Origin: an uncultured archaeon
Lineage (GTDB): Archaea > Asgardarchaeota > Lokiarchaeia > Sigyniarchaeales > SOKP01
NCBI GenBank assembly: GCA_964583985.1
Contig: CAZOYD010000012.1
Span: 1 to 58,485, forward strand
Direction: 5' to 3'
DNA length: 58,485 nucleotides
The position numbers and the translations under genes were made by a program. The first letter of the stretch is position 1. The number at the start of each line of letters is the position of its first letter. The notes beneath the pieces were generated by a model. The model searched no databases. It was not told the DNA's origin and saw only the letters and a program-made list of their open reading frames with translations. Below, piece after piece: positions 6,374 to 58,353 of this stretch.

Positions 6374-8434
<2,061 letters not shown>

Positions 8435-55567: not shown

Positions 55568-56749
55568 TTAAGCTCTATCCCTTTTGAACACGCTTGGCAT
55601 AGCATGTTTATAGCCCTTAAGTGCAAAGCGAGATATGACAATTCTTTGTATTTCACTCGTACCTTCATAAATTTGGTAGAGTTTTGCATCTCGGAAGAGT
55701 TTTTCAACGGGATATGTTCGAAGATAACCATACCCCCCATATACTTGAATTGCCTCGGTAGTGACCCTCATAGCAACGTCAGAAGCAAAGGCTTTGGCAA
55801 CTGCAGAACTCATGTTATTATCTAAACCTTGGTCTGCCTCCCAAGCTGCTTTATATGTCAATAACCTTGCTGCTTCAATATCCTTGTACATATCTGCGAT
55901 CTTAGCTGCGATTACTTGATAATTACTAATTGGTCTACCAAAAGCTTCCCTTTTTTGAGCATAATCAATAGAATATTCCATGGCTGAGCGAGCACACCCT
56001 ACTGCGAATGCTCCTATAGCCGGTCTCGTATGGGCAAAAGTTTGCATTGCCACCACAAAACCTCTCCCTGGTTTTGCTAATACATTCTCTTTCGGGACTC
56101 TCACATTTTTAAGAGATATAGCAACTGTATTTGAGGCTCTTTGGCCGAGTTTAGGAATATGTTTCCCAAGTCTCACACCTTCCGTTTTAGTTTCAACTAT
56201 GAAAGCTGCAATACCATTATGCTTTTTCTCTGGATCTGCTGTAGCAAAGACCGTAATATAATCTGCGAATCCACCATTTGTAATCCAAAATTTAGCACCA
56301 TTAAGGATATAATCTTCACCATCTTTTTCTGCTCTGCACTTCATTCCAGCAACATCTGAACCCATTGTGGGTTCTGACGTAGCAAATGCTATTAGTTTAA
56401 ATTCATTCGTGAGTTCTCGTAATATTCGAGATTTTTGTTCTTCATTACCCCCAATGATTATTGGTTCTGCCCCAAGGTTATTATCAAAAATTGAGGTTGC
56501 CATACCAGGACAAGCTGAAGATATTTCTTCTACAACGATGCATGCTTCAATTAATCCAAATCCATGACCTCCATATTGTTTAGGTATCCCCAAATTCAAT
56601 AATCCTTGTTCCCAGGCTTTCTTTATCACGGGCATGGGAAATTCTTCAGATTCATCATACTTCTGTGCAACCGGAAGGACTTCATTTATTGCAAAATCTC
56701 GTGCTTTTTGTTGAAGAGCTTTTTGTTCTTCGGTTAATGCAAAATCCAT
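55568..56749 (-). CDS. Acyl-CoA dehydrogenase
   Basis: AFATSEPTMGSD, LNGAKFWITNG, KLGQRAS, REAFGRPI, QVYGGYGY, IYEGTSEIQR. Confidence 0.95.
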   Translation of the reverse strand: MDFALTEEQKALQQKARDFAINEVLPVAQKYDESEEFPMPVIKKAWEQGLLNLGIPKQYGGHGFGLIEACIVVEEISSACPGMATSIFDNNLGAEPIIIGGNEEQKSRILRELTNEFKLIAFATSEPTMGSDVAGMKCRAEKDGEDYILNGAKFWITNGGFADYITVFATADPEKKHNGIAAFIVETKTEGVRLGKHIPKLGQRASNTVAISLKNVRVPKENVLAKPGRGFVVAMQTFAHTRPAIGAFAVGCARSAMEYSIDYAQKREAFGRPISNYQVIAAKIADMYKDIEAARLLTYKAAWEADQGLDNNMSSAVAKAFASDVAMRVTTEAIQVYGGYGYLRTYPVEKLFRDAKLYQIYEGTSEIQRIVISRFALKGYKHAMPSVFKRDRA

Positions 56750-56753
56750 GGGT

Positions 56754-57965
56754 TCACACCTCCATTTTTTTGACTAACTTATCCACGATATCCTTGAAGT
56801 TTAATTCATTAGGTTTTGGGACAAACTGGATTTCAATTGCATCATCCAGCATCGCAATTCCCGTGGCTTCCATTTCACTGATTATAGCTCTTACGGCTCC
56901 TTTACTCCATCCATATGATCCAAAAGCTAACCCAACCTTGTTCATTGGTTTTAATCCTTTCTGATAACATAGATATTCTGCAACAGAAGGGAATAGACCC
57001 CTATTTAAAGTAGGACTTCCTACTAATATTGCTTTGGCTTTCATTGCTTCAGTTATGACATCACTGTAATCCGATGCAGTCAAATTGAATCTTTTTACAG
57101 GAATTCCCCTGCGCCAAATCTCATGATATAATTCTTTTGCTATTTTGGTTGTACTTTCCCACATACTATCATAGATTATCACCGCACTATTTTCCTTAAT
57201 TTCTCCATGTGACCACCTTGTATAAGCTTCTATAATGTCCGGGATATGCTTTCTCCAGCATACTCCGTGTGATGGACAAATTATATCTATTGGAAGGGCT
57301 CCAACAACGGGGAGAGTCTTGGCAATTAAATTTGATAAATGAAGCAAAATATTCGCATAATACTTTTCAGCTTCCCACATTATTTCTGAAAATTCGTTCT
57401 CATCATCCCAATGTTTTGATGTCGCAAAATGTTGCCCAAAAGCATCATTGGAAAATAAAACATTCTTCCCATTTTCATCAGTCATAAAAGAAACCATTGA
57501 ATCAGGCCAATGGATCATCGGAATAGGAATGAAAGTAAAAACCTTACCATTTCTCACATCTAGTTGATCCCCATTTTTAACTGCCCGTATTTTTTCAAAA
57601 ACACTTTTATCTACTTCCTCGTGATAATGTTGTTCTAAAATTTCAACCCCCTTTGTCGATGCTATGAGCTCAGCATTAGGTAAATATTCTAATATTAATG
57701 GAAAAGAACCCGAATGATCTGGTTCAATATGATTTATGATAAAATAGTCAATATCTTTTGGATCACATACCATTTGAATGTTTTTTAAAAAATACTTGAA
57801 GTATGGTCTTTTAACGGTATCGATTAGTACATACTTATCTCCAGTCTTTACCAGATATGCATTATAAGAAGATCCTTTATGCGTCGAATACCCGTGGAAA
57901 TTTCTAACTTCCCAATCCACATATCCCACGTAAAACACATCTTTCATGATTTCCAATTCATTCAT
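56754..57965 (-). CDS. fprA: Class A flavodiiron protein
   Basis: NHIEPDHSG, HWPD, SNDAFG, PSHG; flavodoxin domain SMWEST, GSPT, FGSYGW. Confidence 0.93.
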   Translation of the reverse strand: MNELEIMKDVFYVGYVDWEVRNFHGYSTHKGSSYNAYLVKTGDKYVLIDTVKRPYFKYFLKNIQMVCDPKDIDYFIINHIEPDHSGSFPLILEYLPNAELIASTKGVEILEQHYHEEVDKSVFEKIRAVKNGDQLDVRNGKVFTFIPIPMIHWPDSMVSFMTDENGKNVLFSNDAFGQHFATSKHWDDENEFSEIMWEAEKYYANILLHLSNLIAKTLPVVGALPIDIICPSHGVCWRKHIPDIIEAYTRWSHGEIKENSAVIIYDSMWESTTKIAKELYHEIWRRGIPVKRFNLTASDYSDVITEAMKAKAILVGSPTLNRGLFPSVAEYLCYQKGLKPMNKVGLAFGSYGWSKGAVRAIISEMEATGIAMLDDAIEIQFVPKPNELNFKDIVDKLVKKMEV

Positions 57966-58142: not shown

Positions 58143-58309
58143 TTAGATTTTATTAAAGAAACTTTTATCGACCCCGCATACCAGATTAAATACTGAAAAA
58201 ATATTTAATTTACCGGGCATACCCAATCATCGGGGAGGTCTTCCCATTTTGTTCCTTCGACATCCTCGTCATAAACATATCCGCAAGCTGAACATTCATA
58301 TTTCGAAAT
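58143..58309 (-). CDS. Rubredoxin, split gene: exon 1 58309-58211 (probable ATT start), exon 2 58178-58143
   Basis: Spliced product (M)[32 protein letters not shown]|[11 protein letters not shown] has both CxxC motifs; upstream of fprA; SD AGGTGA. Confidence 0.9.
58179..58210 (-). other. Putative 32-nt canonical BHB intron in rubredoxin mRNA
   Basis: Sense AATTAAATATTTTTTCAGTATTTAATCTGGTA; central helix CCGG/CUGG, bulges UA|A and UA|U, 9-10-bp inner stem, outer UGC/GCG; carries an in-frame TAA and shifts the frame. Confidence 0.9.
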
Positions 58310-58353
58310 TATATTTCACCTTAAATTTAGTTGAAATTTTATTATTGATGGAT

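Follow-up and report, generated by a model that had tools for sequence, protein, structure and literature searches.

Our analysis shows that a rubredoxin gene of an Asgard archaeon is interrupted, in its second CxxC motif, by a 32-nt insert with the geometry of a strict BHB intron. The gene occupies 58309-58143 on the minus strand of the window (the whole 58,485-nt stretch of DNA analyzed here), which lies at the beginning of contig C12 in a 3.8 Mb genome, labeled G000 in our comparisons. It encodes 44 amino acids once the 32 nt (58210-58179) are excised. We think it very likely that EndA cuts both bulges and RtcB joins the exons, and that the resulting four-cysteine rubredoxin serves the flavodiiron protein FprA. 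We propose that the transcript would fold into the BHB, that the host (alpha-beta)2 EndA would cut after the second base of each bulge, and that RtcB would ligate the exons. The 44-aa protein, made from an ATT start, would then pass electrons to the adjoining flavodiiron protein. We favor an EndA-type intron because diverged inserts at the same site keep the BHB, exon 2 is intact, the genome encodes EndA and RtcB, and a similar insert breaks rpoA1. Most probably the insert is a near-neutral passenger that the cell tolerates thanks to its removal by EndA, and gene conversion from another species was probably its way into this lineage.

A split rubredoxin gene and the geometry of its insert

Unspliced, the rubredoxin frame ends at WVCPVN followed by a stop, giving a 34-aa stub with three cysteines. 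Exon 1 matches the Pfam Rubredoxin family (PF00301; E 6e-11), and in silico excision of the insert yields C6, C9, C31 and C34 in two CxxC motifs predicted to bind iron. The intronless orthologue of genome G001 matches solved rubredoxins (E 9e-16). Among deletions of 20-44 nt, only a 32-nt deletion restores CPVCG. Five registers of this deletion give the identical spliced sequence, and 58210-58179 alone forms a BHB, with its central helix paired at 4/4 positions, 10 pairs in the intron and 3 in the exons; none of the other four registers has more than 2/4 central pairs. On the minus strand, the exon helix pairs UGC (58219-58217) with GCG (58177-58175) and the central helix pairs CCGG (58216-58213) with CUGG (58184-58181). 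The bulges are UAA (58212-58210) and UAU (58180-58178), and the intron stem closes on a 5-nt loop.

A full central helix with at least four intron pairs arose in 1.1e-4 of 200,000 shuffled inserts. The BHB fold of this insert lies 2.3 kcal/mol above the predicted minimum-energy fold (2.3-8.7 kcal/mol across the four same-site alleles described below), and the folding z-score of the region is unremarkable, at only about -1.2. Searching Rfam with the 32-nt insert gave no match at E<=1. We ruled out a group I or group II self-splicing intron on this ground and on the insert's length, which leaves it without a catalytic RNA core.

Table 1. Features of the split rubredoxin locus and of other inserts in the same genome; locations are window positions unless a contig is named
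Feature	Location	Strand	Remarks
Rubredoxin exon 1	58211..58309	-	codons 1-33; ATT start; Cys6, Cys9, Cys31; Pfam match
Rubredoxin exon 2	58143..58178	-	Cys34 to stop; intact in 4/4 carriers
Predicted BHB intron, 32 nt, phase 0	58179..58210	-	between Val33 and Cys34 codons; in-frame TAA 58207-58205
Whole strict BHB motif	58175..58219	-	3-bp exon helix, 4-bp central helix, two 3-nt bulges, 10-bp intron stem
Shine-Dalgarno-like AGGTGA (presumed function)	58316..58321	-	6 nt before ATT; sequence and orthologues
Putative co-conversion tract (CDS nt 79-132 plus intron)	58143..58231	-	common to distant carrier G023
fprA, flavodiiron protein gene	56754..57965	-	177 nt downstream of rubredoxin; Pfam ODP, Lactamase_B, Flavodoxin_1
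rpoA1 insert	G000 C2:24757-24787 (L139)	-	between GHFGH and IELARP
gyrB insert, 33 nt, stop-containing, BHB-shaped	6437-6469	+	between GLDGV and RKRP; checked against intronless G017
Two SCP2 inserts, 29-30 nt	G000 C66:14382 and 14276	-	homology
Thiolase insert, 29-30 nt	G000 C2:124178	+	homology
Candidate insert in NAD-synthetase-like motif	G000 C85:7886	+	motif-only scan only

The 44-aa count requires initiation at ATT (58307-58309): an in-frame TGA lies three codons upstream, and in-frame ATG, GTG and TTG are absent. This ATT aligns with the ATG and GTG starts of orthologues, which carry GGTG or AGGT elements similar to the AGGTGA here at like spacing before the start. ATT or ATA is the sole possible start, after a Shine-Dalgarno-like element, in G000, G017, G007 and G131. 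The last three of these are intronless orthologues, and for this reason we rejected the ATT codon as a sign of decay. Rubredoxin starts vary across the genus, including ATG, GTG, TTG, ATT, ATA and ATC. Gene callers miss or truncate the insert-bearing rubredoxins: database entries P0176 and P0139 are 36 and 37 aa long, and no gene is called for the rubredoxin on JGI metagenome contigs of this species.

The rubredoxin and fprA lie in a cluster with rubrerythrin, desulfoferrodoxin and acyl-CoA dehydrogenase genes. We take the fprA product to be the likely electron acceptor of the rubredoxin, in line with its established partner role. Relatives of FprA with 79-90% identity are found in Promethearchaeota (Loki-type Asgard) assemblies. 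The acyl-CoA dehydrogenase gene begins 4 nt after fprA (both within 55568-57965, minus strand), and in relatives it can carry a fused rubredoxin (L287). In assembly GCA_013375495.1 (L291:1-3315), an 885-aa NosD-repeat gene separates a full rubredoxin from a 24-aa C-terminal remnant of rubredoxin that precedes fprA. Beyond the window, 2 kb away, is a second small intact rubredoxin-like ORF with a GTG start (C12:60233-60391). It comes directly after a gene for an NAD(P)H oxidoreductase that carries a rubredoxin domain at its C-terminus; the two genes lie within C12:60233-61762. The window itself ends at a run of Ns (C12:58486-58585) flanked on both sides by the same ~55-nt sequence, probably a scaffolding duplication; the JGI contigs span this spot.

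The original prediction had described this hidden gene, its insert in the second CxxC, the strict BHB with both flanking helices, the 44-aa four-cysteine product of a 32-nt excision and the neighboring fprA. All of these agree with our analysis in sequence, coordinates and Pfam identification, with the addition of the ATT start that the 44-aa product needs. It had further held that splicing would be required for any metal-binding product. That holds for this gene only, since the genome has the second rubredoxin-like ORF, which is intact and could make the split gene dispensable.

Same-site inserts in the genus and their origin

An identical insert, with the same ATT, is present in six JGI metagenome contigs of the same species (L281-283, L288-290), whose fprA genes are identical to that of the window at 1208-1212 of 1212 nt. 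These contigs rule out an assembly artefact. JGI samples 3300031692, 3300031364, 3300063170 and 3300062534 contain the species. Across 35 genomes of the genus, 4 of 36 orthologous genes have an insert at this site and 32 are intronless. The inserts measure 32 nt in G000 and in G023, 31 nt in G010 and 30 nt in G018, where an in-frame stop is also present. Central and exon helices are 100% paired in all four alleles. Although the sequence of the intron stem varies among them, 93% of it is paired; four pairs have changed on both sides (small counts, from four alleles of which two are close), and one stem pair is broken in G023. The whole BHB is 96% paired, versus 27-48% for slid partners. Cutting in silico between bases 2 and 3 of each bulge restores CPVC and the full rubredoxin in all four alleles, and for G018 the spliced product is the same as an intronless database protein (P0174). 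Exon 2, which translation would reach only once the insert is excised, shows 2-7 synonymous differences per pair of carriers, and its non-synonymous differences are confined to residue 42, a position that varies in intronless genes too; this exon has only 11 codons, and part of its conservation would date from before the gains if these are recent. The junction codons are CC[AG] GTA in 4/4 carriers and in 1/32 intronless genes.

The carriers are not a clade, and near the intron the gene of G000 is closer to that of a distant carrier than to those of its intronless sisters. In an rpoA1 tree (which excludes G003, G137 and G138, whose rpoA1 is intein-split, partial or missing), each of the four carriers has a separate position, and three of these positions are nested within well-supported clades of intronless sisters. 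Monophyly of the carriers was rejected (p-AU 7e-72), as was a grouping of G000 with G023 (1e-7), the groups being defined by the insert and tested after the tree had been seen. The introns of G000 and G023 are identical at 28/32 positions, against only 32% identity at fourfold sites of rpoA1. Within CDS nt 79-132 (54 nt), 2 positions distinguish G000 from G023, against 9-10 that distinguish it from its intronless sisters. Within nt 4-78 the pattern is reversed, with 16 differences to G023 and 7-13 to the sisters, and the flanks of the G000 gene also follow the sisters. Several of the diagnostic sites of this exon mosaic lie outside the BHB and are thus unconstrained by it. Breakpoint permutation for the G000 mosaic gave p 0.005 (G001), 0.015 (L299) and 0.08 (G006), values that are uncorrected and non-independent; most such tests gave no significant result for G018 and G010. 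L297, an intronless relative of G023, already has the exon-2 codons GGG GTC and the Asn42 of G000, suggesting transfer from that lineage into that of G000. Together, these patterns suggest lateral transfer of the rubredoxin intron with co-conversion of the flanking exon, and we lean toward lateral gain as its origin.

No endonuclease-bearing or long form was found at this site among truncated hits followed up in 134 genomes of the family or in viral contigs, and the one viral-contig match to the intron was rejected as chance. Within-genome copying is unsupported, because we found no similar copy elsewhere in the genome (the best has 8 mismatches in 32) and no relative among its loose tRNA-like calls or its other mRNA inserts. 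LAGLIDADG genes of this genome occur in an 1180-aa frame, probably an intein, and in a free-standing ORF on contig C66; neither is tied to the rubredoxin site. The free-standing LAGLIDADG-family ORF (C66:16370-17245, plus strand; 291-aa frame) lies ~2 kb from the intron-split SCP2 gene. Beside it, at about C66:17265-17400 on the minus strand, visual inspection suggests an intron-bearing tRNA-Asp absent from the ARAGORN calls.

An alternative, concerning origin only, dispenses with lateral transfer: the intron would have been gained once, ancestrally, in the genus and then lost precisely many times. The four introns share the ending CTGGT[AT], G001 and L299 show the CCA GTA junction expected after loss, and both the mostly non-significant G018 and G010 tests and the search that found no endonuclease-bearing form agree with such a history. 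Against it stand the many losses needed, the intron similarity of G000 and G023 set beside their divergent rpoA1 genes, and the inclusion in the exon mosaic of positions that the BHB does not constrain. We regard an ancestral gain as rather unlikely.

Splicing machinery and inserts in other genes

Two EndA subunits are encoded in the genome, at C4:51.7 kb and C3:71.3 kb. For the alpha subunit, the best matches are heteromeric enzymes of crenarchaea (E 1e-36), with which its Tyr, His and Lys align; the second subunit lacks this catalytic triad. The gene for RtcB is intact.

The single rpoA1 gene, encoding RNA polymerase A', is broken at its zinc-binding motif by a 31-nt frame-breaking, BHB-shaped insert, and different inserts occupy the same rpoA1 site in G142 (L171) and G059 (L176). 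Of the indirect signs that the cell removes such inserts, this break in an essential single-copy gene is the strongest. Because scanning the genome for the BHB motif alone did no better than controls with altered geometry, we used a homology-based census instead. This motif-free comparison with G017, which covered ~1,490 conserved frames (about half of G017; proteins of at least 70 aa, with short exons missed), identified five frame-breaking inserts of 29-33 nt, in rpoA1, gyrB, thiolase and, twice, SCP2. Three of the five reach 7 of 8 BHB pairs, compared with 2/100 control positions. mRNA splicing looks general in this genome because rpoA1, gyrB, thiolase and SCP2 carry similar inserts. More broadly, we put at about even the chance that Loki-type Asgard archaea routinely splice mRNAs, even essential ones, with tRNA endonuclease and ligase, and that endonuclease-less mini-introns spread between species by a homing-like conversion that takes ~50 nt of exon with it.

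The spread of such inserts over housekeeping and lipid genes also bears on a suggestion of the original prediction, that splicing of the rubredoxin might respond to O2 or iron. Added to splicing, such control would amount to an IRE1/XBP1-like switch for a rubredoxin-FprA defense. The rubredoxin does sit in an O2-defense cluster, two separate sites in this small gene have been hit within the family, and a negative regulatory role has been proposed for the cbf5 intron (PMC2738675). However, 32/36 orthologues in the genus do without the insert, neither its loop nor its stem is conserved in sequence, and like inserts sit in rpoA1, gyrB, thiolase and SCP2. The idea finds no support in our data, and we judge the switch very unlikely.

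Also very unlikely is a hairpin insertion that is never removed, by which the gene would recently have become a pseudogene, with the other rubredoxin-like ORF as a buffer. The ATT start, the GGTA at both ends of the insert (which resembles a target duplication), the spare ORF at C12:60233-60391 and the closeness of intronless sisters could all be read this way. However, ATT or ATA is the sole possible start in three intronless genes too, exon 2 is intact in every carrier, and the same kind of insert breaks single-copy rpoA1. The GGTA repeat is absent as such from the G018, G010 and G023 inserts, whereas their pairing is kept. The original prediction had itself named the outcome that would speak for a pseudogene, an insert in one strain only, with decayed flanks and a GGTA duplication; the orthologues instead show six further contigs with the identical insert, an undamaged exon 2 and loss of the repeat in three carriers.

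Translational bypassing, of which T4 gene 60 and the mitochondrial byps are examples, would have the ribosome leave at the GTA codon and land on the GTA ending the insert, with no RNA cut; it is extremely improbable, because the matched GTA triplets of G000, G018 and G010 (3/4 alleles), the hairpin and the nearby stop are set against a GTT landing triplet in G023, a stop that does not directly follow the take-off codon, rpoA1 and gyrB inserts without matched codons yet with BHB geometry, and conserved exon-intron pairing. Bypass elements have their stop directly after the take-off codon (PMC8211752).

Comparison with known BHB introns

A BHB intron in cbf5 pre-mRNA was reportedly described by Watanabe in 2002 and by Yoshinari in 2006. 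This intron occurs in Desulfurococcales and Sulfolobales, measures 16-44 bp and is spliced by a heteromeric EndA (Yokobori 2009, PMC2738675). The rubredoxin insert resembles it as a short coding-sequence insert at a functionally critical motif, with cuts (predicted here) between bulge bases 2 and 3, a hetero-oligomeric EndA, a variable interior and no endonuclease gene. It differs in lying in another gene of another phylum, in an Asgard host, and in being one of several mRNA inserts per genome. The cbf5 intron is a single ancestral intron with few losses, whereas the rubredoxin insert is patchy (4/36) with signs of lateral transfer. Most cbf5 motifs are relaxed and the rubredoxin BHB is strict; cbf5 splicing was shown by cDNA, and that of rubredoxin is predicted from sequence.

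Thermoproteales 16S rRNA genes carry short hairpin BHB introns, of which Pog.S1205 was co-converted by the Pog.S1213 endonuclease (PMC4496867). Like the rubredoxin insert, these are under 50 nt, form hairpins, keep the BHB, and lack an endonuclease of their own; they can move by co-conversion, a route that the exon mosaic of G000 suggests for the rubredoxin insert too. However, they lie in rRNA with a known neighboring homing endonuclease, and we found no such driver for the rubredoxin insert, which at 32 nt also differs from homing BHB introns in having no endonuclease ORF inside.

Heavily interrupted Asgard tRNA genes show many separate gains whose arrival route is described as open, with splicing not yet shown in an Asgard cell (bioRxiv 10.64898/2026.10.13.758758). 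They share with the rubredoxin insert the enzyme type and the motif, but the rubredoxin intron has no relative among the tRNA-like calls of its genome. The same 2026 preprint covers tRNA genes only, and the word "mRNA" does not occur in it (bioRxiv 10.64898/2026.10.13.758758). A literature search with most subscription papers outside its scope turned up no coding-sequence BHB introns reported from Asgard archaea, and in the literature searched endonuclease splicing inside an archaeal coding sequence was shown for cbf5 only. If it also occurs in rubredoxin, RNA polymerase A', gyrB and others within a single Asgard genome, the prokaryotes most closely related to eukaryotes would splice mRNA as a matter of course, with a bearing on the origin of IRE1/RtcB-type mRNA splicing. 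It would also bear on how BHB introns arrive, termed the central open problem for Asgard tRNA introns (bioRxiv 10.64898/2026.10.13.758758); lateral gene conversion, to which the exon mosaic points, is a route that can be tested. The small, strict BHB substrate is easy to test in vitro.

Rubredoxin genes of other genera have a second intron site 10 nt downstream of the one described here, with 29-nt inserts in L091 (G105), L092 (G059) and L108 (G057); their excision restores CGVGKDMF.
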